A stretch of 16,483 nt of DNA from Promethearchaeota archaeon (GCA_048941015.1 JBHLNZ010000065.1:1-16483), one strand, 5' to 3'; counted from the stretch's first letter, positions 1,722-16,483 are shown. Numbers and translations are program-made. The notes: generated by a model from the sequence alone, not told the origin.

Positions 1722-2723
1722 ATGTTAACTCCAGAACATGTTAAAGAAGTTTTAAAGCAAAATACTATAAATCTACGTTTTCACGCTCGCGGAGGTCAAG
1801 GCGGAGTAACTGCATCAAATCTATGCGTTGAAGCGTTTTATGGTTATGGAATCTGCCAACCAAGATTTGGAGCAGAGAGAATGGGAAGTCCTACTGAAAG
1901 CTATGTTAGATTATCAGCGAATGAAGAATTAATAAGATCTAACGAACAGGTATATGCACCACATTTCGTTGCTGTTTTAGATCCTTCACTTTTGGGAGAA
2001 ATTGACGTTACTTCAGGATTAGCGAAAGGTGGATGGCTTATTGTAAATACTTCATTAGATCAAGTCTCTATTCAGACTGCCGTAGGTAGGAAAGATATCA
2101 ATATTGCAACTATTGATGCTACTCGAATAGCTTTAGACGTTTTAGGAAGAAATATAACTAATACTATTATATTAGGAGCATTAATTAGAGTTTCTCACCT
2201 TTTCACTTTAGAGGAGTTATCTGATGCTATAATGAGAAGATTTAAAGGAGAGATTGCTGGTAAGAATATTGATGCAATTAAACAAGCAATAGAAGAGACT
2301 TGTATTTATGATATCGGTATTGAGCCAGACTTTACTATTGATACCAAAGTTCCATGGCATCAAGTCTTTCCTGGCTTACCTGGCTATAAAGAACTTGATA
2401 AAGCAGGAGTTTGGTATATGGATGAAAATGTTATAGAAATGGGGAGCAGTCAAGTAAATACTGGGTCATGGGGAGAGTGGGATATTATATGGGATGAGGA
2501 AAAGTGTACTGATTGCGCTCAATGTTGGTATATATGCCCTGATTTTGCTATTATTCGAGAAAAAGGAGAGGATGGCCTATGGCATATGAAAGGAATCGAT
2601 TCCTATCATTGTAAGTCATGCCAAAACTGTCTAGAAGTTTGTCCAGTAGATGCTATAAGTAAAAGATTAAAACAAGGACCTGCAGCTTGTGCAGTTCCAG
2701 AAGATCAAGAAGGAGGTAATTAA
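1722..2723 (+). CDS. porC: 2-oxoacid:ferredoxin oxidoreductase, fused gamma + delta (2x[4Fe-4S] ferredoxin) subunit
   Basis: Gamma motifs RFHARGGQGGVTAS, FGAERMGSPTESYVRLS and DATRIALDVLGRNITNTIILGAL. These are followed by the delta motif TGSW and two CxxCxxCxxxCP motifs (CTDCAQCWYICP from C262, CKSCQNCLEVCP from C297). Confidence 0.92.
   Translation: MLTPEHVKEVLKQNTINLRFHARGGQGGVTASNLCVEAFYGYGICQPRFGAERMGSPTESYVRLSANEELIRSNEQVYAPHFVAVLDPSLLGEIDVTSGLAKGGWLIVNTSLDQVSIQTAVGRKDINIATIDATRIALDVLGRNITNTIILGALIRVSHLFTLEELSDAIMRRFKGEIAGKNIDAIKQAIEETCIYDIGIEPDFTIDTKVPWHQVFPGLPGYKELDKAGVWYMDENVIEMGSSQVNTGSWGEWDIIWDEEKCTDCAQCWYICPDFAIIREKGEDGLWHMKGIDSYHCKSCQNCLEVCPVDAISKRLKQGPAACAVPEDQEGGN
2711..2717 (+). 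promoter_or_regulatory. Shine-Dalgarno site for the alpha subunit
   Basis: AGGAGGT ending 8 nt before ATG 2726, inside the last codons of the upstream gene. Confidence 0.7.
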
Positions 2724-2725
2724 TT

Positions 2726-3952
2726 ATGTCAATAGAACCAATGAAAATCTTTTTTAAAGAGATTAAAGAACCAATTGAAACTACAATGATTGGAAATTAT
2801 GCCGTAGCAGGCGGTGTAACTCAAACTGATCCAGATGTAATCTGTGCATTCCCTATAACGCCTCAAACCCAATCGGTTGAGGGATTATCTGATGTAGTTC
2901 ATCAAGGAAGATTGAAAGCAGCTTTTGTTAATGTTGAGTCTGAATTAGCTGCTATTAGTTATTCAACAGCAGCCTGTGCAGCAGGAGCAAGAGCATTTAC
3001 AGCTACAGCTAGTCAAGGATATTTACTGATGACAGAAGCACTTCCCATGGCAGTAGGATGGAGATTGCCTTTAACAATGATGATTAGTGCAAGAGCTTTC
3101 AATTCACCAAATTTAAGTATATGGAATAGTTGGGAATATACACAAGTCAATTCTGAATTAGGTTGGAATATTCTTGTATCAGAAAATGTTCAAGAAACTT
3201 ATGATGCTGCGATACTCTCAGTTATGGTTTCAGAAGAAAGTTTATTTCCAACTATATTTGTTCATGATGGATTTATTATTTCTCACTCCGTTCAAAAATT
3301 AACCTTGATTCCTGATGAAATTGTTAGAAGAATGACTCCAAAAAAGCCTAGACATACAATAAGTACTAACCATCCTGGTACCTGGGGCGGCATTGTTACA
3401 CCCTCTTTTTTTATGGAAGGAAGAGCAAATTTAGAAGAAGCAAAAAAACCAGTACTGGGACAAATGACTAACGTTTTTAATAAATTCAAAAAAGAAACAG
3501 GTAGAGAATACAATTTAATAGAAACATATAATTTAGATAATTCTTCAAAAACAGCATTTTGCACAATGGGTTCTATGTGTGGAAATATTATTAGTTGGAT
3601 GACTAAAAATAAGGATATTGGACTTATTAAAATGAGAGCCTACCGTCCTTTTCCATATGAAGAATTAAGAAAAATTGTTGAACAATATAACTTGGAAAAG
3701 TTAATTCTTTTAGAAAAGAGTGATTCGCTAAATGGAATGTTACCTCCATTTTCAATGTCTGTAGCTAGTGCACTTTATCCTCTTGGAACTCTTTTTAGGA
3801 GTTTTATTGTCGGTTTAGGAGGGCGAGATGTAACTAGAGACGAGTTTGACATTGCAAAGAAAAAAATAGCAAAAGTGTCAGATATGAAAGGACAATTGTA
3901 TTCATATCTTGGTCTACGAGAAACTAAAGAAAAAATTTATGGGGTGGATTAA
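2726..3952 (+). CDS. porA: 2-oxoacid:ferredoxin oxidoreductase alpha subunit (PorA family)
   Basis: Motifs GNYAVA, AFPITPQT, VESE, AAGARAFTATASQG, DGFIISH, YRPFP and GLGGRDV. It starts 2 nt after the gamma-delta stop. Confidence 0.93.
   Translation: MSIEPMKIFFKEIKEPIETTMIGNYAVAGGVTQTDPDVICAFPITPQTQSVEGLSDVVHQGRLKAAFVNVESELAAISYSTAACAAGARAFTATASQGYLLMTEALPMAVGWRLPLTMMISARAFNSPNLSIWNSWEYTQVNSELGWNILVSENVQETYDAAILSVMVSEESLFPTIFVHDGFIISHSVQKLTLIPDEIVRRMTPKKPRHTISTNHPGTWGGIVTPSFFMEGRANLEEAKKPVLGQMTNVFNKFKKETGREYNLIETYNLDNSSKTAFCTMGSMCGNIISWMTKNKDIGLIKMRAYRPFPYEELRKIVEQYNLEKLILLEKSDSLNGMLPPFSMSVASALYPLGTLFRSFIVGLGGRDVTRDEFDIAKKKIAKVSDMKGQLYSYLGLRETKEKIYGVD
3941..3946 (+). promoter_or_regulatory. 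Shine-Dalgarno-like site for the permuted beta subunit
   Basis: GGGGTG ending 9 nt before ATG 3956, which supports this as the real start. Confidence 0.55.
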
Positions 3953-3955
3953 AAC

Positions 3956-5035
3956 ATGTCAGAAAGAAATGTAATTAATTATGAAGATATTCTAGCTAGA
4001 AAAGAAAAGTCCAACGTATTATTCTTTAATTATGATAATGAAGCATTCATGAATACAGGGATCCAAGAAAGTGGTGGAACTCCACCCTTCGCTTCTACCA
4101 CTACTGGTCCGGCTGGTGAAAAAATCCCAGGAAAAATAGGTGTAAAACAAGATTTAGTAACTCCTTTTGCTTTTTTTGGAACTAAAAAGCTCTTTTTAGC
4201 AACAGTAAATCCAGCTTATCCTACAGATTTTATGGGCAAAGTTGCTGATGCACTTAAATCTAATGGTTCTGCTTTTATACAAGCATACTCAGACTGCATG
4301 AGGGGTTGGCGTCATGGTGCTGAATCCGCTTTAGAAATATCAAAATTAGCGACTGATTGCGGATATTGGCCACTTTATACCGTAAGGGTAGAAGATGGTA
4401 TGCCCAAGTTCACATATTTTAGAGGTTTAGACATTAATAAAGATAAATTCGTAGATTATTTGAAATCAATGGGTAAATTTCGCCATCTTTTTAAACCAAA
4501 ATTTATGGAAAAAGAGATAGATCAAATAATTTACTTGACAGAACAAAGAAATGAAAAAATAAAGCGATTAGTTGACAAATTTGGATCTGACAAACCTATA
4601 GATTTCTATCGAATAAATCGTAAGAAATTAGAACCTCAAAATCATCTACAACCGGGACATGGGCTTTGTCCAGGATGCGGAGCAGGAATGGTTTTAAATC
4701 AACTAGCAACTGCCGCTCAAGCAGTTGGTGGGAATAACGTAATTTATGTAAACAATACGAGTTGTTCAGAAGTTTCCACTTCAAAAGACTATGTGACCTC
4801 TTGGAATGTCCCATGGGTTCATCATTTATTCGAATCAGGCGCTACAGTTGCAGAAGCAATAAGCACTGCTTATAAAATTATGAAATCAAAAGGCGAATTT
4901 GATGGTGAGATTCCATATGTTATTCATATTGGGGGCGACGGCTCAACATATGATATTGGCTTTCAATTCTTAAAATCTGCCTTAATAAGGACAAGTTCAT
5001 TTGTAGAAATGAATGAATATCTCAAACAGCATTAA
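3956..5035 (+). CDS. porB: 2-oxoacid:ferredoxin oxidoreductase beta (ThDP-binding) subunit, circularly permuted
   Basis: All PorB motifs are present but in swapped order. YDNEAFMNTGIQ-SG-TP (res 26 on), SDCMRGW (C114), GYWPLY and YLKSMGKFRHL come first. PGHGLCPGCG (C238/C241), TSCSEV (C270), SWNVPWVHHLFE and GGDGSTYDIG (G326 on) come last. Confidence 0.92.
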   Translation: MSERNVINYEDILARKEKSNVLFFNYDNEAFMNTGIQESGGTPPFASTTTGPAGEKIPGKIGVKQDLVTPFAFFGTKKLFLATVNPAYPTDFMGKVADALKSNGSAFIQAYSDCMRGWRHGAESALEISKLATDCGYWPLYTVRVEDGMPKFTYFRGLDINKDKFVDYLKSMGKFRHLFKPKFMEKEIDQIIYLTEQRNEKIKRLVDKFGSDKPIDFYRINRKKLEPQNHLQPGHGLCPGCGAGMVLNQLATAAQAVGGNNVIYVNNTSCSEVSTSKDYVTSWNVPWVHHLFESGATVAEAISTAYKIMKSKGEFDGEIPYVIHIGGDGSTYDIGFQFLKSALIRTSSFVEMNEYLKQH

Positions 5036-5048
5036 ATAAATTCTACTT

Positions 5049-5080
5049 ATTCTTTTCTTTTATTAATAAATCTGTTTTTT
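5049..5080 (+). terminator. T-rich archaeal-type terminator region after the OFOR operon
   Basis: ATTCTTTTCTTTT...CTGTTTTTT shortly after the porB stop. Confidence 0.4.
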
Positions 5081-5180: not shown

Positions 5181-6212
5181 ATGAGAAAAAAAAGCAAAAT
5201 ATTAGTAATTTCTCTTGTAATACTAATAGCTAGTAGTATCTCTATTACTTTCGGAATTCTAATTTACTTTAATAAACCTTCAGCGAGATTTGGCTATGGC
5301 ATGGTTTATGATGAAAGCATTAATAAAGTCATACTATTTGGTGGTGGTTTTCAAGATAGTACGTCCTATACCTATTATGGTGATACATGGGTTTATAATC
5401 CTAGAACAAATTTATGGGCTGAAATTTTTCCCCAAGAGCATCCTACTGCAAGATCAAGTCATTCTATGGTCTACGACGCGATAAATCAGAAAATAATACT
5501 TTTTGGTGGAGTTGATTTAAATGATAATTGGTTGAATGACACATGGATCTTTGACTCTCAAACTAAAAAGTGGACTGAGGTATTTCCCGTAAACAGTCCC
5601 TCAATTAGAGGAAGTTCTTCTTGTTATTACGACCGTCAGGCTCAAAAGGTGATTCTTTTTGGAGGGTATCAAGAAGTGGGAGGGCATTTAAATGACACCT
5701 GGGTATATGATTATTTAACTAATAACTGGACAAATCTTAATCCTTCGATTAAACCAACAGGACGATATGGTGCTCCTATGGTATATGATCCAATAAATAA
5801 AAGGGGTCTTCTTTTTGGTGGTCGCACCACTATTATAACAGATGAAACGTGGGTTTTTTACTATTCTAACAATTCTTGGCTTGAGTTAACTTTGTCAGTT
5901 ATGCCATCCAACAGATATTGGGAAGGTTTGGTTTATGATGAGACCGCTCAAAACGTGTTACTTTATGGAGGGCGTGTTTCTGGAGGAATTGGAGAAGCTT
6001 TGGATGAAACATGGTTATTCGATCCTTTTACCAATCAATGGAGTCAGACGTTTCCAAGCTCTAATCCTACAAGTAGATTTCATGTCTCACTTGTATATGA
6101 TTCTGAGAAAGAAAATGTTATTCTCTTTGGAGGTTTTAGATTTCCAGATGTTTGTTTCGGTGATACATGGAATTATAATTATGATACTAATACTTGGAAT
6201 AAATTAAAATAA
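5181..6212 (+). CDS. Membrane-anchored or secreted Kelch-repeat six-bladed beta-propeller protein
   Basis: Basic N-terminus MRKKSK plus a hydrophobic helix (res ~7-31). Then six repeats of PxxR-x4-(M/L)VYD-x6-(I/L)L(F/Y)GG-x(n)-(D/E)TW-x-(Y/F)-x6-W. Confidence 0.9.
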   Translation: MRKKSKILVISLVILIASSISITFGILIYFNKPSARFGYGMVYDESINKVILFGGGFQDSTSYTYYGDTWVYNPRTNLWAEIFPQEHPTARSSHSMVYDAINQKIILFGGVDLNDNWLNDTWIFDSQTKKWTEVFPVNSPSIRGSSSCYYDRQAQKVILFGGYQEVGGHLNDTWVYDYLTNNWTNLNPSIKPTGRYGAPMVYDPINKRGLLFGGRTTIITDETWVFYYSNNSWLELTLSVMPSNRYWEGLVYDETAQNVLLYGGRVSGGIGEALDETWLFDPFTNQWSQTFPSSNPTSRFHVSLVYDSEKENVILFGGFRFPDVCFGDTWNYNYDTNTWNKLK

Positions 6213-6335: not shown

Positions 6336-7496
6336 TTGACTTTATCAAAACGAGAACGCGTCTTTAAAACTTTAGAGCTTGATGGAGAACCTGATAAGGT
6401 TCCTATACATTGTTTTGGTTTTGAACAAACAGGTATATCTTTTCAAGCTTTTAAAAACTCTGAAGAATGGGATAAAAATGAGAGTTATGTGATAAATAAA
6501 TTTTCAAATGTGAAATATTATATAACAGAACAGCGATTTTGGAATGTAGATCTATGGGGGATGGATCCTTTTGGTGAAAATAAAATAAAAATTAGAAATA
6601 AAACAGCACCCCCAGAATATCCAGAGTGTCGCATTAATATAATGGATGGTCGGATTTATAAGAATGTTAAACAAGTAAATACTGGTTTAGAGTATTCTTG
6701 GTATGTTGATGGGTATTTTAAAAATCCAGAAATTTTAAATTCTTACTGGGATCGATATGGAAAACCAACAGAGCTAATTAATGATAGAATTAATTATTCT
6801 CCTCGAATATGGGAGAGTTTTGTTGAGGCAATTTCCCCATACTTTTATCCAATGGCTAATTTACCAATAAATCCTTCTGAAGCTTTAGTAGGTGGTACCA
6901 CCTTTTTTCGATTTGCTTATTACATGAGAAAAAATCCTAAATTTATACATATGATTATGGATGAATATACAAAGGTTAATATAGAGATTATCAAACGATT
7001 AGATGAAGCTGGAGTCGATATAGTTACTTTTGGTGATGACCTGGGCTATAAAGAGAATCAATTTTTATCTTTGAAGAATTTTCGAGAGTTTATTCTTCCA
7101 TACCATAAAAGAATATATCAAGCTTGCAAAAAAAGGGGAATTTTAATCGTTTTGCACTCTTGTGGTAAAATAGACCCCTTTTTACCAGACTTAGTCGATG
7201 CTGGACTTAATTGTATCCAATCTCTAGAAGCCACAGCAGGAGTTGATTTAAAAGGATTGAAACAATCCTTAGGGAATAAACTATGTTTTATGGGTGGATT
7301 AGACTCATCTGGAATTCTAACATATGGCACACCTAAAGATGTTAAAGAAAATGTGAAAAGTTGTATTAAAAACGCTGGTAAAGGTGGTGGATATTTTGTA
7401 GGACCTAGTCATGACATCTTAAACATTCCCTGGGAAAATATTCTAGCAATGAGAGCTGCAATTGAAAAGTATAGAAACTATCCCTTAAATTTTTGA
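6336..7496 (+). CDS. UroD/MetE/MtaA-CmuA superfamily protein (probable Zn-dependent substrate:corrinoid methyltransferase-like), paralog 1
   Basis: N-terminal KRERV...EPDKVP, GDDLG, HSCG (H274/C276), LCFMGGLD and GGGYFVGPSH. The TTG start is supported by upstream GAGGA and by alignment with the paralog start MNLSKRERV. It lacks the MRQAGR motif of true HemE. Confidence 0.85.
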   Translation: MTLSKRERVFKTLELDGEPDKVPIHCFGFEQTGISFQAFKNSEEWDKNESYVINKFSNVKYYITEQRFWNVDLWGMDPFGENKIKIRNKTAPPEYPECRINIMDGRIYKNVKQVNTGLEYSWYVDGYFKNPEILNSYWDRYGKPTELINDRINYSPRIWESFVEAISPYFYPMANLPINPSEALVGGTTFFRFAYYMRKNPKFIHMIMDEYTKVNIEIIKRLDEAGVDIVTFGDDLGYKENQFLSLKNFREFILPYHKRIYQACKKRGILIVLHSCGKIDPFLPDLVDAGLNCIQSLEATAGVDLKGLKQSLGNKLCFMGGLDSSGILTYGTPKDVKENVKSCIKNAGKGGGYFVGPSHDILNIPWENILAMRAAIEKYRNYPLNF

Positions 7497-7673: not shown

Positions 7674-9107
7674 ATGAGTGAAACTGAATTAAATGTTGAA
7701 TCAAGACATCGATGGTGGCGTTATGCTTCAAATGGTACATATCAAATAACTGCAACCGTTATTAGTGCCACACAAGCTCTCTATTTATACTTTTATTATA
7801 GACAAGTTATAGGTTTAAATACGGGCCTAATTATTCTAGCTTTATCGATTTTTACTGTTTATGATGCAATTAATGACCCAATAATAGGATTTTTAGTAGA
7901 TCGAAATACTAGGTTAACAAAACGATGGGGTAGGCGCTTCCCATGGATAGTAATCGGAATTATTCCATGGACATTGGCACTTTATCTTATCTTTTCGGCT
8001 CCAACTTTGGATCCTTCAAATCAATTGCCTGTTTTTTTCTGGTTGCTATTCTCATTGGTTATTTTTGATACATTTGGGTCTTTGGTTGGGATTAATGTAA
8101 GTGCTCTTCGACCTGATTTATTTAGAACTGAAGATGAGCGTCGAAAATTAACTTGGTGGTGGACTCCTTTAGATATGGTTGCCCAAGCATTGGGATTTTT
8201 AATTCCGCCTCTATTCTTAGTTGCAGGGAACACTAGGACTAGTTTTGCGTTAATGGGGGCTATGATGGCAGTGATTTGTCTAATAAGCGCTGTATTATTC
8301 TTACCCGGAACAACAGAAGATAAAGTTGTAAAAGACAGATACTTTACAGGTCAATATGAATCTTTCAAATTTTTAACTGGATTTAAAGAAGTCCTGAAAT
8401 CTAAAAGTTTCATGATCTTTTTCATAACACTCACTAGTTTCAATATTACCATTAATTTACTGATGGGTAATGCAGTATTCGTGAACAACTTTCTATTGCG
8501 GTATGCCCCAGGTGATGAATTCATCATATTTGTAATCTTTATGCTAGGTGCTTTTGTTTCATTTCCTTTCTGGATACTATACCTTAAACGAATAAATAAC
8601 AATAAAAAAGTTCTCGTAATGGGTGGTTTAGTTCTTTCTTTTGCTCTTTTCCCTTTAAGCTTTTTCCAAACTGAGATAGATTTATTCATAATGCTATTCA
8701 TTCTCGGAATAGCAATGGGGAGTATGTGGGCATTTTTCTATACTATAATCCAGGCAAGTGTCGTAGATGATTTTGTTGCAAAAACTAGAAAAAATCAAAA
8801 AGGCATTCTTCTTGGAATGTCAACGCTCCTCGGTCGGCTAGTTGCTACTATTGATGAAGGGATATTAGCACTTGTAAATTTGGCTACTGGTTTTCCAGAA
8901 GGAGTAACAACTTATAGTGAATTAGTTACAAAAATTAATCTCTTAGGCGGTAATCTTGGTTTAGCATTATTAGGTTTGAGACTTCTTTTTGGTATTATTC
9001 CAAGTTTGATAATATTAGCTGGTACATTAATCTTTTGGAAATATTTTCCTCTAACTCAAGAAAAAGTCTTAGAAAACAAGAAGATTCTGGAAGAACTTGG
9101 ATTTTAA
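7674..9107 (+). CDS. Glycoside-pentoside-hexuronide (GPH, MelB-like MFS) cation symporter, paralog 1
   Basis: Family signature YDAINDPIIGFLVDRN...RWGRRFPW, plus FRTEDERR, VVDD...QKG and C-terminal FPLT. About 12 hydrophobic segments. Confidence 0.9.
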   Translation: MSETELNVESRHRWWRYASNGTYQITATVISATQALYLYFYYRQVIGLNTGLIILALSIFTVYDAINDPIIGFLVDRNTRLTKRWGRRFPWIVIGIIPWTLALYLIFSAPTLDPSNQLPVFFWLLFSLVIFDTFGSLVGINVSALRPDLFRTEDERRKLTWWWTPLDMVAQALGFLIPPLFLVAGNTRTSFALMGAMMAVICLISAVLFLPGTTEDKVVKDRYFTGQYESFKFLTGFKEVLKSKSFMIFFITLTSFNITINLLMGNAVFVNNFLLRYAPGDEFIIFVIFMLGAFVSFPFWILYLKRINNNKKVLVMGGLVLSFALFPLSFFQTEIDLFIMLFILGIAMGSMWAFFYTIIQASVVDDFVAKTRKNQKGILLGMSTLLGRLVATIDEGILALVNLATGFPEGVTTYSELVTKINLLGGNLGLALLGLRLLFGIIPSLIILAGTLIFWKYFPLTQEKVLENKKILEELGF

Positions 9108-9174: not shown

Positions 9175-10083
9175 TTATTTATTGAAGTATTTATCTTTAA
9201 TATCTGGTACTTTTATTTGAGGAGTATTTTTTTTAATATATTCAAGGGATAATAATGTATCTTGTTTTGGCAATTCAAATACTATTGGCCCTTTAAAATT
9301 ATTAGAATGAATTAACTCTAAAAATTCAGGAGGGAATTTCTTACCTGTACCTAAAGCACTATGATCAGAAATTTTATTGTTTTCATCATAGTCTTGTAGA
9401 TGGATTTCGTTGGTGATATCCAAATAACTTTTTGTAATTTCCATTAAATCACACTCTCCTGAAAATCCTGCTAAGATATGTGCAGTGTCAATGCATAATT
9501 TTGTCTTTAATTCTTTAACTATTTTAAGAGTGGCTTCAAATGGGAATTCTAAATTCTCAATAGCAATTTTATTTCGATCTATTCCAGTTTTCTTAATGAT
9601 TTCTTTAATGCTCTGGATTGAAAAATCGATAAACAGACTTGTTGCCAAAGGATATATCTCTGGATCCATTATAAAATCCATCGCATCTGCAATAAATTCG
9701 CCAGTTGGATGTAAAACAAATACTTCAATATCATCTTTTAATTCTATAAAAGAATTATATGCATCGACTATGGATTTTACACTTCCTTCACGAATAAATT
9801 TATTTGGACTAGCAAGCTCAATAGTTAAGTAAGGAAAATGTGCTGAATAGGTAATATCATATTTTTCTTTAATTTCAATTAACTTTTTAATCTCAGCATC
9901 AATTGTATGAATCGGAAAGATTTGAAATACATCTAAGCTAATCTCACAATGTCTAAAACCTGCTTTAGCAACTCCCTTTACAACATCAGAAAACTGGAAA
10001 TCTGATAACCCTTCTAAACCTTTTTCTTTAAGAACTTCATTAATCATTAGTTCTAGTGTAAATGGGGAAATTCCAAACCTCAT
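9175..10083 (-). CDS. AP-endonuclease-2 / xylose-isomerase-like TIM-barrel metalloenzyme; resembles cobamide-remodelling phosphodiesterase CbiR, alternatively a sugar epimerase/isomerase
   Basis: Metal-ligand motifs TYSAHFP, FVLHP, IAIENLEFPFE, LCIDTAH, EIHLQD, DHSALGTG and IVFE. The fold call is strong. The specific function is tentative. Confidence 0.8.
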   Translation of the reverse strand: MRFGISPFTLELMINEVLKEKGLEGLSDFQFSDVVKGVAKAGFRHCEISLDVFQIFPIHTIDAEIKKLIEIKEKYDITYSAHFPYLTIELASPNKFIREGSVKSIVDAYNSFIELKDDIEVFVLHPTGEFIADAMDFIMDPEIYPLATSLFIDFSIQSIKEIIKKTGIDRNKIAIENLEFPFEATLKIVKELKTKLCIDTAHILAGFSGECDLMEITKSYLDITNEIHLQDYDENNKISDHSALGTGKKFPPEFLELIHSNNFKGPIVFELPKQDTLLSLEYIKKNTPQIKVPDIKDKYFNK

Positions 10084-10192: not shown

Positions 10193-11368
10193 ATGAACTT
10201 ATCAAAAAGAGAACGAGTTATTAGGACATTGGAACTTGATGATAACATAGATATGTTACCCATTCATTATTTGGGTTTCGAAAAAACCAGTATATCATAT
10301 CAAAATTTTCTAAAAACAGAAGAATATAACAAACTATATACTTTCATTGAAAATAATTATTCAAGAGCAAAATATTGCTGGGCTGGAGATATTACCGATT
10401 TACGCTTTTTAAATGTTGATTGCTATTCGATGGATCCTTGGGGTCCGAAAAAGTTCAAAGAAAAAATTAAAAAGGCTCCTCCTGAATATCCTGAATGTTC
10501 AATTAGCACAATTGATGGGAGAATATGGAAGCTTGTCAAGCAAGTTGATACTGGTATAGCTTATTTATGGTATATCGATGGTTACTTTCGAAATCCCGAG
10601 ACAGTACATTATTATTGGAATAAATATGGCAAACCCTCAGAGTTAATTAATGATAAACTTAATTACACACCCCAGATATGGGATGGATATGTAAAAAGCC
10701 TCGAAAAATATGTATATCCAATGGCTTTTGTACCCATTGCTATGCATGAATCATTATTTGAAGGAATGACAATGAGTCGCGTAGCATATTATATGCGTAA
10801 AAATCCTCAATTTATTCATGAACTTATGAATGAATATACTCAAACAAATTTAGAGACTTTAAAACGATTTGCTGAAGCTGGAGTCGACATCGTTTTTTTT
10901 TCTGATGATCTGGGATTTAAAGGGCGCTCAATCTTATCAATTGTCCACTTTAAAGAGTTTATCCTTCCTTATTATAAAAAATTATATCAAGCATGTAAGA
11001 AAAGGGGAATGTTTATTGTTCAACATTCTTGCGGATATATTGATAAAAATCTTCCATATATGGCGGATGCTGGACTTAATTGTATTCAAGCACTTGAACC
11101 TGCAGCGGGTGTTGATTTGGCTAACTTAAAAAATAATCTTGGTGATCATTTATGTTTTATGGGAGGTATTGATTCGAGTCGAATTTTGAATTTTGGAACA
11201 CCTGCTGAGATTGAACAAGAAGTAAAAAGATGCGTTCAAGCAGCTGGTAATAGGGGCGGGTACTTTATAGGCCCTAGCCATAATATTTTAAATGCTCCAT
11301 GGAAAAATCTTATAGCCCTTAAGAGTGCTATTAATAAATTTCGAAAATATCCTATAAATCTCGCTTAG
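10193..11368 (+). CDS. UroD/MetE/MtaA-CmuA superfamily protein, paralog 2
   Basis: SDDLG, HSCG (H278/C280), LEPAAGVDL, LCFMGGID and GGYFIGPSH. Collinear with 6336..7496. Confidence 0.85.
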   Translation: MNLSKRERVIRTLELDDNIDMLPIHYLGFEKTSISYQNFLKTEEYNKLYTFIENNYSRAKYCWAGDITDLRFLNVDCYSMDPWGPKKFKEKIKKAPPEYPECSISTIDGRIWKLVKQVDTGIAYLWYIDGYFRNPETVHYYWNKYGKPSELINDKLNYTPQIWDGYVKSLEKYVYPMAFVPIAMHESLFEGMTMSRVAYYMRKNPQFIHELMNEYTQTNLETLKRFAEAGVDIVFFSDDLGFKGRSILSIVHFKEFILPYYKKLYQACKKRGMFIVQHSCGYIDKNLPYMADAGLNCIQALEPAAGVDLANLKNNLGDHLCFMGGIDSSRILNFGTPAEIEQEVKRCVQAAGNRGGYFIGPSHNILNAPWKNLIALKSAINKFRKYPINLA

Positions 11369-11453: not shown

Positions 11454-13589
11454 TTATTTTTTAAAAATTCCAATTAAAGGTGATAAAGAGGGAATTTCAA
11501 GTTCGAATTGTATTAGATTTTCAGACATTTGATTTAGATCTAAAGTTTGCAGCTTCTGATTTAATCCATTATATATATCTATACTTTTTACATTTAAATT
11601 ATATCTAATTGGATTAAATTGAATCCTTATTTTTTGATTTCTGCTATTTAGATTATAAGTAGTCAATACTCCTAATTTTTCATTTTCATCAACATGAAGA
11701 TGAATATTTTGACTTATGCCATAAAATGTACCGCGTGTGAAAAATGATTTAAGTTTCTTATAAAGGATCATTGCCTTTTTCAAGGCTTTATATTTTCGAT
11801 CATCTTTATTATTTAATCCGCCAATTCCTAAATGTCTTGCTAAAGAAGCATAAAACCAGAATTGTAGCATATTCAGATTGTCACTATTTTCGTTAATATG
11901 CAAATAGAGTGGAATAGAGTAAGCTAAGTTATATTCAAACAATTGATTAGTTCTACCAGACAATAAATCTTGCATTGGATTCCACATGCATTCAAATCCC
12001 CAATTTTCATCAAAACTATGAGGAAGATTATGCTGAAAATATAAAGGATGTCTTGGCTTTACACCTCTGTCATGAGCTTCTATGAGAATGTGAGGATATT
12101 CTTTCTTCACATTTTGAATTACTCTTAAAATATTTTCTGCATGTGTTTGTCTTCTCATTGGTACTTCATGTCCATGATTTTTGCTAAAACAGCCAATATT
12201 ATCTGCCATAAACATTGAAAAGTCAGTAAAATCAAACATGAAAAAATCAATCCCTTCTTTGGCTAACTCTAAAATTCTCTGGGTTTTTTCTTTAACCCAA
12301 TGTTCATTCGCACATACACAATATAGATTTATATAGGGATCTGCAACTAATTTTACTCCTTTTTTGGATCTTAAATAAAATTCATCAGGTTCATTTTGAC
12401 CTTCAAAATTCATCATGAGATGCAGAGCAAGCTTTAAACCATACTTATTATGAATCGTATTCGAAAAATCTTTAAGGGATCCAAATCGCTTTTCATTCCA
12501 TATTTCAGATCCAAGCCAAATATTCCAACCAGGATCTAAATACAAAGATTCGGCACCAATATCTCGAGCAATAGCAGCTTCATTATATAACTGCTCTAAA
12601 GTATAAACTTCAAATTCGGTACTATCAACAAAGAAACCTGTCTTTTCAGCAACCCAACCTAGATTATATAACTCATTCCAATGAACTGGCGGATTATAAT
12701 CTTCCTTAAATTTATGACCATAGTCCTCAAGATGACTCCTATAAAGATAATATCCCTCTCTATAACCTCCCTCATAAACAGCATACCTTGAAAGCCCAAA
12801 TGAATAACTTTCATGAGGTTCCAACATTGTACCTAACTCTGGATTACCTTCACATAGAGAAACGCCTCCGAATAAAATATATATATCTTCAGCACCCCTT
12901 CCAGGTAATGTGGTCGACATCCGTTGAAATCGAGAATATTCCATCTGAGACTGATTATACTTGCATACAAGTAAGCCTCCTCTCGAATCTCCCCATAGCC
13001 ACCCTTCAGAGCAGAATCCTGGCATCTCTGCTTCTTTGGCAACCCAAGCTCCGAACAAAATATCATTAGCGTTATAATTCTCCTTTCTTCGATCAACTCC
13101 ATATCCAAAATATCTTCGAGTTGGAATGGAGGTTAGAGTAAACTCGTCTAAATGTTCATTCCAACCAAAATATTGCTTAAATAAAGCCTTTTTAAAACCA
13201 AAATTAATTAATCCAAATCTAACTTTTTTATTTCCCTGATTAGTAAGTGTGATCTTTTCATCTAACCACTTACAATTATTTTCAAGTTTGAACTCATGAA
13301 TAATTGAGACGTTAGTATCTTCAAAACTTCCTTCTATAATTAAAGAATCCCTTCCTATCATTCGAATTTCTCTCGATGATAACTCTTTAGCCTTATATTC
13401 TGATCCTAAGTGATCAAGATAAATGTACCGAGAACCTTTTTTACCTGAGGTTAAAATTTTATAATGGTAATCTTCATCAGCATAAACCACATCATCAATT
13501 TTACTGTGAAGGATGTAATGAAACCCTTGATCATCACTGAATTGGATTTTTAATTCCCAAAATTGATTTTCTAAAATATAATTTGGCAT
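11454..13589 (-). CDS. Divergent GH36-like (clan GH-D, alpha-galactosidase-like) glycoside hydrolase
   Basis: N-terminal beta-rich domain, then barrel motifs in GH36 order: PPVHWNELY, ARDIGAESLYLDPGW, KRFGSLKDF, GLKLALHL, GIDFFMFDF and YPHILIEAH, followed by a C-terminal beta domain. No signal peptide is seen. Confidence 0.65.
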   Translation of the reverse strand: MPNYILENQFWELKIQFSDDQGFHYILHSKIDDVVYADEDYHYKILTSGKKGSRYIYLDHLGSEYKAKELSSREIRMIGRDSLIIEGSFEDTNVSIIHEFKLENNCKWLDEKITLTNQGNKKVRFGLINFGFKKALFKQYFGWNEHLDEFTLTSIPTRRYFGYGVDRRKENYNANDILFGAWVAKEAEMPGFCSEGWLWGDSRGGLLVCKYNQSQMEYSRFQRMSTTLPGRGAEDIYILFGGVSLCEGNPELGTMLEPHESYSFGLSRYAVYEGGYREGYYLYRSHLEDYGHKFKEDYNPPVHWNELYNLGWVAEKTGFFVDSTEFEVYTLEQLYNEAAIARDIGAESLYLDPGWNIWLGSEIWNEKRFGSLKDFSNTIHNKYGLKLALHLMMNFEGQNEPDEFYLRSKKGVKLVADPYINLYCVCANEHWVKEKTQRILELAKEGIDFFMFDFTDFSMFMADNIGCFSKNHGHEVPMRRQTHAENILRVIQNVKKEYPHILIEAHDRGVKPRHPLYFQHNLPHSFDENWGFECMWNPMQDLLSGRTNQLFEYNLAYSIPLYLHINENSDNLNMLQFWFYASLARHLGIGGLNNKDDRKYKALKKAMILYKKLKSFFTRGTFYGISQNIHLHVDENEKLGVLTTYNLNSRNQKIRIQFNPIRYNLNVKSIDIYNGLNQKLQTLDLNQMSENLIQFELEIPSLSPLIGIFKK

Positions 13590-13876: not shown

Positions 13877-15313
13877 GTGAATGAAGAAATAAAATTAGAA
13901 GGAGATACTGAAGCTCAATCAAACAGGCATTCAAAAAAAACATATCTATCTTTTAGTATGTATCAACTCTCATGGACAATCATAGTTTCAACCTACAATT
14001 TATTCTTGTTTTATTATTATCATACCGTAATAGGTCTTGAAGCATGGGTAATCTTTCTTGCTACTGTATTTACAACTATATGGGCCTCTCTTAATGATCC
14101 CCTAATTGGATATATAACTGATAGAAATTTTAAGTGGACTAGGAGATGGGGAAGGCGCTTTCCATGGATTGTTCTAGGTGCATTACCATTTTGTTTTTCA
14201 ATAATTCTAATTTTTTCAGCTCCAGACGCTAGTATAAATCCATGGCCTGCGTTCTTTTGGTTTATTTTCTCCCAATTTATATTTGAACTCTTTATAACTC
14301 TTGCTGATGTAAATATAGGTATGCTTCGAGTCGATAAATTTCGTACAGAGAAAGAGCGTAGGATATACTCGGGTTATTTCGGCCCATTGGATATGATAGC
14401 ACAAGTATTTGGTATGACTATTCCTCCTTTGTTAATTATTCCTGCTCTAGGATCTTCTTCATATACATTAATGGCAATACTAGTTGCTGTTATTGCTTTT
14501 ATTTTCACATTACTTTTTATCCCAAGTGCTCGAGAAGATAAAATAATCATAGATAGATATTTTTCTAGAGATTATGAAAGAATCTCCTTTTTTAAAGGTT
14601 TAGGAGCAGTGCTGAAACAAAAAAGCTTTTTAGGATTTTGGATTATATATTCTACTTTTCTAATAGCAACAACAATAATGACAGCTATGATTCCATATTT
14701 AGCCACGTTCCTATTACAAGTTGGACCTGATATTATAACGGTTTTATTTGCTATTTTCCTTACAGGAGCTTTAATTTCAGTCCCTATATGGCTAAAATTA
14801 CTTAAGAGATTCAATAATAATAAAAAGGTTTATACAATGGGAGGATTTATTTTATCCGGTACTCTTATACCAGTAAGTTTATTTGTAGGCATTATCGATG
14901 TTGCTATCTATATGTTTATCATTGGTTTCGCTATGGGTAGCATATGGGCTATAGGGATACCTGTTATACAAGCAAATGTCCAAGATGATTTTGTAGTCCG
15001 TACAGGAAAAAATCAAAAAGGAGTGCTAGTGGGTGTCGGGGCCTTACTTTCAATTTTCACTGCTTTCATTGATGAATTGGTTATAGCAATCGTATACGGT
15101 ATTACTGGATTTCATGGAGGGATAAAAGATTATGCAGAATTAGTAGCAACTGTAGCGAACGTAGATTTAGTTCTCTGGGGTATTCGCTTCCTACTAGGTA
15201 TTATTCCTATGTTGATAATGCTAATAGGAACCATCATATTTTGGAGAATATACCCTCTCACACAAGATAAAGTTTTAGCGAATAAAGCTATGCTAAAAGA
15301 ACTTGGCTTTTAA
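13877..15313 (+). CDS. GPH (MelB-like MFS) cation symporter, paralog 2
   Basis: GTG start with upstream GAGATGA. Motifs WASLNDPLIGYITDRN...RWGRRFPW, FRTEKERR, QDDFV...KNQKG and YPLTQDKVL...ELGF. Collinear with 7674..9107. Confidence 0.9.
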   Translation: MNEEIKLEGDTEAQSNRHSKKTYLSFSMYQLSWTIIVSTYNLFLFYYYHTVIGLEAWVIFLATVFTTIWASLNDPLIGYITDRNFKWTRRWGRRFPWIVLGALPFCFSIILIFSAPDASINPWPAFFWFIFSQFIFELFITLADVNIGMLRVDKFRTEKERRIYSGYFGPLDMIAQVFGMTIPPLLIIPALGSSSYTLMAILVAVIAFIFTLLFIPSAREDKIIIDRYFSRDYERISFFKGLGAVLKQKSFLGFWIIYSTFLIATTIMTAMIPYLATFLLQVGPDIITVLFAIFLTGALISVPIWLKLLKRFNNNKKVYTMGGFILSGTLIPVSLFVGIIDVAIYMFIIGFAMGSIWAIGIPVIQANVQDDFVVRTGKNQKGVLVGVGALLSIFTAFIDELVIAIVYGITGFHGGIKDYAELVATVANVDLVLWGIRFLLGIIPMLIMLIGTIIFWRIYPLTQDKVLANKAMLKELGF

Positions 15314-15359: not shown

Positions 15360-16483
15360 TCATAATTTTAAAGGGTATTTTCCATATTTTTTATTGGCTG
15401 AAATCATTGCAAAAATATTTTCCAATTTACAGGAATTGGTAATATCTGTACATGGGCTTAAAATATATCCTCCGCCTTCACCAGCATTCTTAATACAACT
15501 TCTTACTGCTTCATCAACTTCATTAATAGTTCCAAATGGCAATAATTGAGAAACATCAATATTTCCTATTAAACATACTTTATCTCCATATTTTTCCTTT
15601 AAATGCTTCAAATCCATGCCAGCCATTGGTTCTAATGCCTCAATTCCATGAAATCCTGCTTCAATTAATCCATCAAAATATGGTTCAGTAAAACCATCAG
15701 AATGAAATATAACATATTTTCCCGCTTTAATAATTGGATGTAGAATTTGCTTATAAGCAGGTATAATTAGTTCTTTATGATATTTTGGATTTATCATTGT
15801 TGTATTTTTTAAAGCTGAATCGTCGCACAAAAAGAATACTTCAAAATCTGTTTCTGCCCACAATTTTGATGCATTAACAGCAATTTTAGTTCTTAGATCA
15901 ATATATCTCTTAATCTTACTTCTTTTCTTCCTTATTAATTTAATTATCAATCCTAATCCAAGACCTTCCCAGATAGGTTCTAAAATTGGGTGTAAATGAG
16001 CACAAAATAGAAAATCATCTATAGGGAATCTTTTAAGTTTTTTATTGATTTTCACAGCAAAATCTATATTTTCTTCCCATTCAATATTAAAATAAGTATT
16101 ATAAAAAAAGTCTGCCATTTCTTCATTCTTTATATAATTCGTTAAATACCAAGAAATGTCAGACTCAAATGAAAGATTCTTCATTGAAATTCTTCCATCA
16201 ATATCAATATATTTATTAGAGTCTTCTAACTTAGGTAAAGGATGACTTTTTAAGTAACTCTGAGGGATTCTTACAGGAAAACCATCAAATCCCCAAGAAG
16301 AATCAAATCCTAACTTCTTATAATGATTAAAATCTAAGAAGTAAAATACATATTTTCTATCCTTCTTAAAATCAGTTCCCCAATATTTTAATAGTTCTTT
16401 CCGGAAACTAGGCATAATATCTTGACAAAAAAGTGGAACTCGGTCAGGTTCCTCATGATTAATTGCTTTTAGTATCCGTTCTC
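15360..16483 (-). CDS. UroD/MetE/MtaA-CmuA superfamily protein, paralog 3 (5' end outside the window)
   Basis: CDDSA, HSDG, LEPMAGMDL, CLIGNID and GGGYILSPCT. The frame stays open upstream of the Met at 16415 to the window edge, reading (R)ERILKAINHEEPDRVPLFCQDI-MPSF, the family's typical N-terminal RER...EPDRVP motif. Confidence 0.85.
   Translation of the reverse strand, partial: ERILKAINHEEPDRVPLFCQDIMPSFRKELLKYWGTDFKKDRKYVFYFLDFNHYKKLGFDSSWGFDGFPVRIPQSYLKSHPLPKLEDSNKYIDIDGRISMKNLSFESDISWYLTNYIKNEEMADFFYNTYFNIEWEENIDFAVKINKKLKRFPIDDFLFCAHLHPILEPIWEGLGLGLIIKLIRKKRSKIKRYIDLRTKIAVNASKLWAETDFEVFFLCDDSALKNTTMINPKYHKELIIPAYKQILHPIIKAGKYVIFHSDGFTEPYFDGLIEAGFHGIEALEPMAGMDLKHLKEKYGDKVCLIGNIDVSQLLPFGTINEVDEAVRSCIKNAGEGGGYILSPCTDITNSCKLENIFAMISANKKYGKYPLKL

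Follow-up and report, generated by a model that had tools for sequence, protein, structure and literature searches.

A circularly permuted beta subunit with a divided thiamine diphosphate motif in a probable 2-oxoacid:ferredoxin oxidoreductase of Lokiarchaeia

We analyzed a 16,483-nucleotide stretch of DNA from a Promethearchaeota archaeon (GCA_048941015.1, JBHLNZ010000065.1:1-16483), hereafter the window, in which three tightly packed plus-strand genes encode homologs of the subunits of 2-oxoacid:ferredoxin oxidoreductases (OFORs) (Table 1). The third of these genes encodes a beta subunit, here termed beta', in which the two halves of the canonical chain stand in swapped order and the binding motif for thiamine diphosphate (ThDP) is divided between the two ends of the protein. 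The first gene fuses the gamma and delta subunits, with matches to Pfam POR (5.5e-28) and Fer4 and to NCBIfam PorC_KorC (154 bits) and PorD_KorD (60 bits), and its delta module carries two CxxCxxCxxxCP motifs, read in translation as CTDCAQCWYICP and CKSCQNCLEVCP. The alpha subunit scores 294 bits on NCBIfam PorA_Arch, under the cutoff of 550, and a gap of 3 nt separates its stop codon, which ends at 3952, from the beta' ATG at 3956. A preliminary description of the locus, made from the sequence alone, had placed the open reading frame, the YDNE, CPGCG, and GGDG motifs, the cysteines, the 3-nt gap, and the Shine-Dalgarno-like site, and all of these coordinates and residue positions hold.

Table 1. 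Genes, segments of beta', and putative signals of the operon, with coordinates counted from the first nucleotide of the window
Feature	Coordinates	Strand	Basis
Gamma-delta fusion subunit, 333 aa: POR gamma domain (residues 24-191), then ferredoxin-like delta module	1722..2723	+	
Alpha subunit, 408 aa, PYR domain and domain II	2726..3952	+	Pfam POR_N 2.5e-54, PFOR_II
Shine-Dalgarno-like GGGGTGG, 10 nt 5' of the beta' ATG, within the 3' end of the alpha gene	3939..3945	+	Sequence read; putative function
Circularly permuted beta subunit (beta', 359 aa and stop)	3956..5035	+	Stop-free open reading frame, profile and PDB-sequence matches
New N-terminal extension, residues 1-19	3956..4012	+	Family-conserved I-I-x-x-E/D-D/E-I/L-L-A-R; no significant canonical PorB match
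Old C-terminal half of PorB, residues 20-191 (9bt4_C 119-282)	4013..4528	+	phmmer, invariant columns, VIA-align
Join of old C- and N-termini, residues 192-223	4529..4624	+	Gap between aligned stretches; no canonical-profile match
Old N-terminal half of PorB, residues 224-345 (9bt4_C 3-115)	4625..4990	+	phmmer, invariant columns
New C-terminal extension, residues 346-359 and stop	4991..5035	+	Family-conserved aromatic-x-x-M-N-x-x-L; no significant hhalign match alone
T-rich stretch 3' of the operon (TTCTTTTCTTTTATT ... TTTTTT), possible archaeal oligo-T terminator	5050..5080	+	Sequence read; putative function

The homology of beta' to canonical PorB falls into two pieces. In phmmer comparisons with PDB sequences, the segment from residue 224 to 345 matches residues 3-115 of Methanosarcina acetivorans PorB (9bt4_C; independent E-value, 4.1e-18), and the segment from residue 21 to 191 matches residues 119-282 of the same chain (independent E-value, 2.3e-25). 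The two stretches do not overlap and together span residues 3-282 of the 296 in PorB, with an overall E-value of 1.5e-46. The same swapped pair recurs against the beta subunit of oxalate oxidoreductase (OOR) (5c4i_C; 223-345 to 9-127 and 20-185 to 130-290; E-value, 7.8e-45), and the match to the NCBIfam PorB model is likewise divided in two. At the level of sequence, this two-piece, swapped homology is far beyond chance. With the matches to the OOR-beta and VorB models, it identifies the PP domain of an OFOR beta subunit. The preliminary description had proposed that the halves are swapped with a break inside the ThDP motif, and the alignments to PorB bear out both points.

The break falls within three residues of canonical PorB, between 115 and 119, where the helix that follows GDG gives way to the strand that carries DNE. 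The old C-terminal half therefore comes first in the chain and holds YDNEAFMNTG (YDNE at nt 4031-4042) with the Mg ligand N28, C114 (nt 4295-4297), and WPLY. The old N-terminal half comes second and holds PGHGLCPGCG with C238 (nt 4667-4669) and C241 (nt 4676-4678), C270 (nt 4763-4765), VPWVHHLFESG, and GDG (residues 327-329, nt 4934-4942; GGDG from nt 4931) with the Mg ligand D328 and the following helix. The contiguous GDG-x(24-30)-N(N) of OFOR beta subunits is thus absent, as GDG at 327-329 and DNE at 27-29 lie 300 residues apart and in reverse order, and the ThDP/Mg motif can be restored only in three dimensions. The four proximal [4Fe-4S] cysteines are all present, with the CxxC pair C238 and C241, C270, and C114 aligned to the cysteines of 9bt4_C; a further cysteine, C135, is not a ligand. 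Between the halves, the join consists of the tail of the canonical C-terminal helix and about 16 extra linker residues. A linker had earlier been placed at residues 205-230, which is roughly right, with aligned homology ending at 191 and resuming at 224.

The swapped order might stem from misjoining of contigs or from collapse of a tandem duplicate, and the assembly that holds the window, with 144 contigs and 5% contamination, invites the question. Hundreds of independent contigs nevertheless show this order, as do closed genomes. A word-indexed search of 5.8 billion proteins returned more than 100 protein clusters collinear with beta' over its full length, at 54-96% identity and on contigs of up to 959 kb. 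Exact-sequence look-up placed it in the closed genomes of the cultured Promethearchaeum syntrophicum MK-D1 (DSAG12_00808, QEE14985.1), the enriched Candidatus Lokiarchaeum ossiferum (NEF87_002873), and Candidatus Harpocratesius repetitus, in all three of which the NCBI label is "hypothetical protein." Overall, identities from 52% to 96% mark these sequences as diverged orthologues rather than copies of a single error. Because the same order recurs across independent contigs and closed genomes, misassembly is excluded, and we assign an assembly or binning artefact a negligible probability. The preliminary description had called for a search of related genomes, and the order it predicted is present in many diverged orthologues, those of cultured and enriched Asgard archaea included.

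The permuted gene belongs to one archaeal class. A six-frame search found it in 130 of 400 genomes of the phylum, five of the matches lying in one-contig genomes; by class, 128 of the 160 sampled genomes of the same class carry it, across families f1-f7, against 1 of 239 outside. The single outside case is a fragment, 88% identical, and is probably a mis-binned contig. Copies 81-88% identical sit in bins with an actinobacterial label (DATKTW010000155.1, Candidatus Nanopelagicaceae bacterium) and with that of a distant Asgard family of the phylum (G075), both most likely mis-binned contigs. An exhaustive HMMER scan of 1.84 billion cluster representatives gave only a single further sequence collinear over the full length (P0121, labelled Helarchaeota, 55%), along with fragments, and nearly all other matches listed are two-stretch matches, in canonical order where the listed coordinates permit checking.

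Conservation and selection speak for a working protein. In an alignment of 40 beta' homologues at 53-96% identity, N25, Y26, D27, N28, E29, N33, T34, G35, C114, C238, C241, C270, W283, W287, H289, E293, G327, D328, and G329 are invariant. Comparison of beta' with 89 orthologous coding sequences by the Nei-Gojobori method (NG86) gave ratios of nonsynonymous to synonymous substitution (dN/dS) of 0.04-0.07 for the listed pairs, with a median of 0.06 and a maximum of 0.26 over the 44 pairs with finite dS, values that are rough because dS is saturated in most pairs; for the closest pair, dS is 1.08 and omega 0.069. The proportion of nonsynonymous differences is 0.087 in the old C-terminal half and 0.104 in the old N-terminal half, compared with 0.18 in the linker, 0.22 in the N-terminal extension, and 0.20 in the C-terminal extension. 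Constraint is strong and equal in the two halves and weaker, though still present, in the new parts. Relaxed selection, which the preliminary description had named as evidence against its reading, is excluded by the low dN/dS and the invariance of the Mg ligands and four cysteines, and its suggestion that the gene is functional gains support from the same ligands and purifying selection, as far as sequence can provide it. The swapped order is genuine, old, conserved, and under selection.

Structure prediction is consistent with an OFOR fold. The AlphaFold2 model of the beta' monomer, built with the alignment of 40 homologues, has a predicted template modeling score (pTM) of 0.84 and a mean predicted local distance difference test value (pLDDT) of 77.9. 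It places a long helix (185-209) and a strand (210-219) across the join and a strand (4-8) and helix (9-13) in the N-terminal extension. VIA-align matches the model to PFOR domain VI, OOR beta, and PorB with Z of 10-12 (158-183 residues; root mean square deviation [rmsd], 2.6-4.4 A), mostly within model residues 7-208, the old C-terminal half, and Foldseek agrees with these OFOR matches; both programs align sequentially, so that only about half of the chain is covered in the OFOR matches and the comparison is silent on how the halves pack. In Rossmann-like topologies, the helix-to-strand loop of a beta-alpha-beta unit lies on the side of the sheet opposite to the cofactor. The cut sits in just such a loop, and because of this the two chain ends of beta' should lie side by side.

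A different arrangement would have the ends swapped across the dimer, with the GDG helix of one beta' complementing the DNE strand of another in an otherwise active enzyme. OFORs are dimers of heteromers, both free ends of beta' carry one half of the motif together with a conserved extension, and the complex that we modeled (see below) held one alpha and one beta' only, all of which would accommodate a swap. The monomer model is compact, though, the cut is in a short loop of a single beta-alpha-beta unit whose ends are expected on topological grounds to be adjacent, and nothing points specifically to swapping. We regard this arrangement as improbable and expect each beta' to complete its own motif.

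The partner subunits also bear on the assignment of beta' to an OFOR. Alpha adjoins beta' in 82 of about 90 loci. A distant Lokiarchaeon locus whose flanking genes differ (L006) has the same gamma-delta, alpha, beta' order, and so do MK-D1, L. ossiferum, Harpocratesius, and a further two loci drawn from other families of the class. In one genome assembled as a single contig (G279), beta' lies at 1502548-1503603 (L101) and a 62% identical orthologue of alpha at 2045958-2047169, 543 kb apart; here the subunits are kept but unlinked. Alignments of alpha to 9bt4_B and 7plm_A/1b0p_A pair its T45, E73, and R123, all invariant in alignment A2, with T31, E64, and R114 of D. africanus pyruvate:ferredoxin oxidoreductase (PFOR). 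In PFOR, these are the substrate-carboxylate and ThDP-activating residues. A model of alpha with beta' scored 0.83, the best of three controls scoring 0.00, with at least 93% agreement in contacts between runs and partner pLDDT of at least 83. Of 80 solved complexes, 58 reach the mark used for this score, as do 2 of 110 mismatched pairs, counts that apply only approximately here because we used our own alignments. The confident contacts join alpha 64-90 to beta' 260-345, that is, to the old N-terminal half including the helix after GDG. The model supports binding of the two subunits, but its score may reflect likeness to solved OFOR complexes instead of binding. Co-encoding and predicted assembly with the partners are thus both found for beta'.

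Together, these observations make it very probable that the genes at 1722-5035 encode an active Por-type 2-oxoacid:ferredoxin oxidoreductase, (alpha beta' gamma-delta)2, with a naturally circularly permuted beta subunit. In the enzyme that we propose, the beta' chain would start at the YDNEAFMNTG strand, run through the old C-terminal half and a linker of about 30 residues to the CPGC segment of the old N terminus, and close with the GDG loop and helix, folding into the usual PP domain. D328, near the C terminus, and N28, near the N terminus, would jointly hold the Mg-diphosphate of ThDP, with alpha E73 activating the cofactor and alpha T45 and R123 holding the substrate carboxylate. Electrons would pass to the proximal [4Fe-4S] cluster (C114, C238, C241, and C270), on to the two clusters of the delta module, and then to ferredoxin.

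Published data on MK-D1 bear on this proposal. Imachi et al. (2020; PMC7015854, Supplementary Table 4) assign DSAG12_00808, 00809, and 00810 to PFOR as its beta, alpha, and delta/gamma subunits, the only PFOR entry in that table, and make no mention of the swapped order. The three genes are expressed at 286, 372, and 314, values within the span seen for other catabolic genes. The main text treats 2-oxoacid oxidation as central to MK-D1 syntrophy (PMC7015854). The PFOR assignment in that study rests on annotation. As to substrate, pyruvate, possibly along with 2-oxobutyrate, would be the most likely, an assignment that we hold with little more than even confidence. The profile scores lean this way, with beta' at 210 bits on PorB and 174 on VorB, and alpha at 294 on PorA_Arch compared with 199 on the Vor alpha model. 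The genome that holds the window also has two canonical alpha-beta OFOR pairs (C69:26388-27209 and C58:7635-8456; L002 and L003), whose betas fall just under the NCBIfam cutoffs and score slightly higher on VorB (about 390 bits) than on PorB (about 375, against 405).

Such canonical pairs accompany the permuted operon in each genome checked, and some complete relatives do without that operon, so it might be asked whether beta' is an inactive relic or a noncatalytic scaffold that does not bind ThDP, with the canonical Por/Vor paralogues doing the chemistry. We think this very unlikely, given that all cofactor and cluster ligands are invariant in the family, that dN/dS is about 0.05 in both halves, that alpha retains the catalytic Glu and the substrate-binding Thr and Arg, and that the MK-D1 operon is expressed at levels like those of other catabolic genes.

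Several points weigh against an active enzyme of the kind proposed, beyond the roughness of the dN/dS values already noted. First, closure of the site and adjacency of the termini are deduced from fold topology, and the monomer model is of low confidence (pLDDT below 50) at residues 30-70, where solved enzymes have loops that enclose the cofactor between subunits. Second, beta' scores well under the curated NCBIfam equivalog cutoffs (PorB, 210 of 405 bits; VorB, 174 of 405; OOR beta, 187 of 590), so that its subfamily and substrate are left unassigned by these models; this is also why NCBI names it a hypothetical protein. Third, at least three genomes of the same family that are 98-100% complete (G267, G179, and G182) do without the operon entirely: they lack both the permuted beta and the orthologous alpha, and the only paralogues they carry are distant ones of the canonical Por/Vor type. 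Some close relatives appear to have lost the operon, which is therefore dispensable in these three genomes.

We also considered whether the permutation is adaptive, with the motif halves and extensions forming a terminal clasp that gates cofactor loading or contacts gamma-delta or the partner protomer. This is a speculative idea that we rate as rather unlikely. If it were true, Lokiarchaeia would own a mechanistically distinct PFOR central to the syntrophic 2-oxoacid metabolism of eukaryogenesis models.

Among known systems, the proposed enzyme shares with M. acetivorans PorB (9bt4_C) the ThDP/Mg motif residues, the four cysteines, VPW-H-x-LFE-G, WPLY, and a PorA-like alpha partner, and 9bt4_C superposes on the C-terminal half of the model (Z, 10.1; rmsd, 2.9 A; 163 residues). 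It differs in the swapped halves, in terminal extensions of 19 and 14 residues, in the approximately 16 residues added at the join, and, relative to the four-subunit M. acetivorans enzyme, in the fusion of gamma and delta. That fusion recalls Moorella thermoacetica OOR (5c4i), likewise of three subunits, in which domain III and the ferredoxin domain share one polypeptide; residues 52-313 of the gamma-delta protein match the OOR delta model, and OOR beta is homologous to beta' in both halves. In contrast, OOR beta has the canonical order, scores on the OOR models are far under cutoff (187 of 590 and 137 of 500 bits), and alpha here retains the PFOR-type Thr and Arg substrate residues. The porC-porD-porA-porB operon of Bathyarchaeia (L104; cluster of P0126/P0301) has the same gene order of gamma, delta, alpha, and beta, and the best profile score of its beta is likewise to PorB (397 bits). 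That beta is canonical, however, and gamma and delta are separate genes.

Rearrangement has precedent elsewhere in the ThDP superfamily, where domain order is PP-PYR-x in transketolase and dehydrogenases and PYR-x-PP in decarboxylases, and where the GDG...N motif has been called "strictly maintained" (bioRxiv 10.1101/2021.03.21.436335). A contiguous GDG...N motif is the feature by which ThDP enzymes are recognized. In these enzymes, as in beta', the sequence order is rearranged, and the cofactor site is preserved, as is predicted for beta'. Those permutations shuffle whole domains and leave GDG-x(about 30)-N contiguous, whereas beta' is cut inside the PP domain and inside the motif.

To place the permuted family, we built a tree from 14 permuted rows, 53 canonical representatives, and the two canonical paralogues of the host genome; the permuted rows were rearranged in silico solely for the alignment. 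The permuted sequences form one clade (Shimodaira-Hasegawa-like approximate likelihood ratio test, 100), whose stem measures 1.37 changes per column. The fork that would identify its sister is weak, leaving a sister position for Bathyarchaeia unsupported, although Bathyarchaeia PorB is among the nearest canonical relatives of beta' (38-43% identity). Dating or sourcing the permutation event from a sister group was set aside because the tree is weak at that fork. Relative to the nearest canonical operon, alpha is 34% identical and beta' 38%; alpha has diverged as far as beta', so that the Loki enzyme as a whole is best seen as a deeply branching Por-type lineage, and the length of the stem is no peculiarity of the permuted subunit.

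An ancestral porB was probably rearranged a single time, in the common ancestor of Lokiarchaeia. The textbook route to a permuted gene is tandem duplication followed by fusion and truncation. No tandem or partly truncated porB intermediate turned up in the HMMER scan or in split-open reading frame and open-frame checks. Two split-gene pairs broken in or near the linker, P0295 with P0292 (3004-nt contig) and P0314 with P0315 (21200-nt contig of a Helarchaeota metagenome-assembled genome), were rejected as intermediates: one repeats a peptide at the break, the other is without the CPGC segment, and they look like frameshifts or assembly errors on short contigs, although the place at which they break is noteworthy. 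An apparent alpha-beta' fusion, a 715-aa open frame (G259, L090), proved to be due to a scaffold gap filled with N. The terminal extensions were examined as possible relics of duplication. A very permissive hhalign comparison runs the N-terminal extension onto the helix after GDG and the "MNEYL" of the C-terminal extension onto "MNTG"; alone, the extensions gave nonsignificant E-values (0.13 and 0.16, respectively), and duplication relics remain a hint only.

The rest of the window contains genes of other kinds. Directly downstream of the operon lies a Kelch-repeat beta-propeller protein of 343 aa (5181-6212, plus strand; Kelch_KLHDC2_KLHL20_DRC7, 9e-55), a eukaryote-like repeat protein in an Asgard genome. 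Three paralogous URO-D-family proteins (6336-7496 and 10193-11368, plus strand; 15360-16415, minus strand), whose Pfam matches are confined to the C-terminal 180-200 positions of the profile, alternate with two MFS_2/GPH-type transporters (7674-9107 and 13877-15313, plus strand), and these genes look like a repeated module of a URO-D-like protein and a transporter. A xylose isomerase-like TIM-barrel protein (AP_endonuc_2; 9175-10083, minus strand) lies between a transporter and a URO-D-like gene, and a 711-aa open reading frame (11454-13589, minus strand) matches no Pfam family at an E-value of 0.001 or better.

The gene itself is known, as its MK-D1 orthologue has been listed as PFOR beta, with no remark on the swapped order (PMC7015854). 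Full-text searches on permutation in OFORs, PorB, ThDP enzymes, or Asgard archaea, searches by locus tag, and a November 2026 review of PFOR diversity yielded no description of a permuted OFOR beta subunit, in agreement with the preliminary description, which was not aware of a described natural permutant. Because the swap takes beta' below the profile cutoffs and it is named a hypothetical protein, automated metabolic reconstructions of Asgard archaea can seem to lack a PFOR beta subunit.

That a whole archaeal class keeps, under strong purifying selection, an enzyme whose ThDP motif is cut and whose motif halves stand at opposite ends of the chain makes beta' a natural test of chain connectivity at a cofactor site and a template for the engineering of split or permuted OFORs. 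The syntrophic use of amino acids and 2-oxoacids by MK-D1 underlies a leading model for the origin of eukaryotes, and with this archaeon in culture the enzyme is open to experiment.

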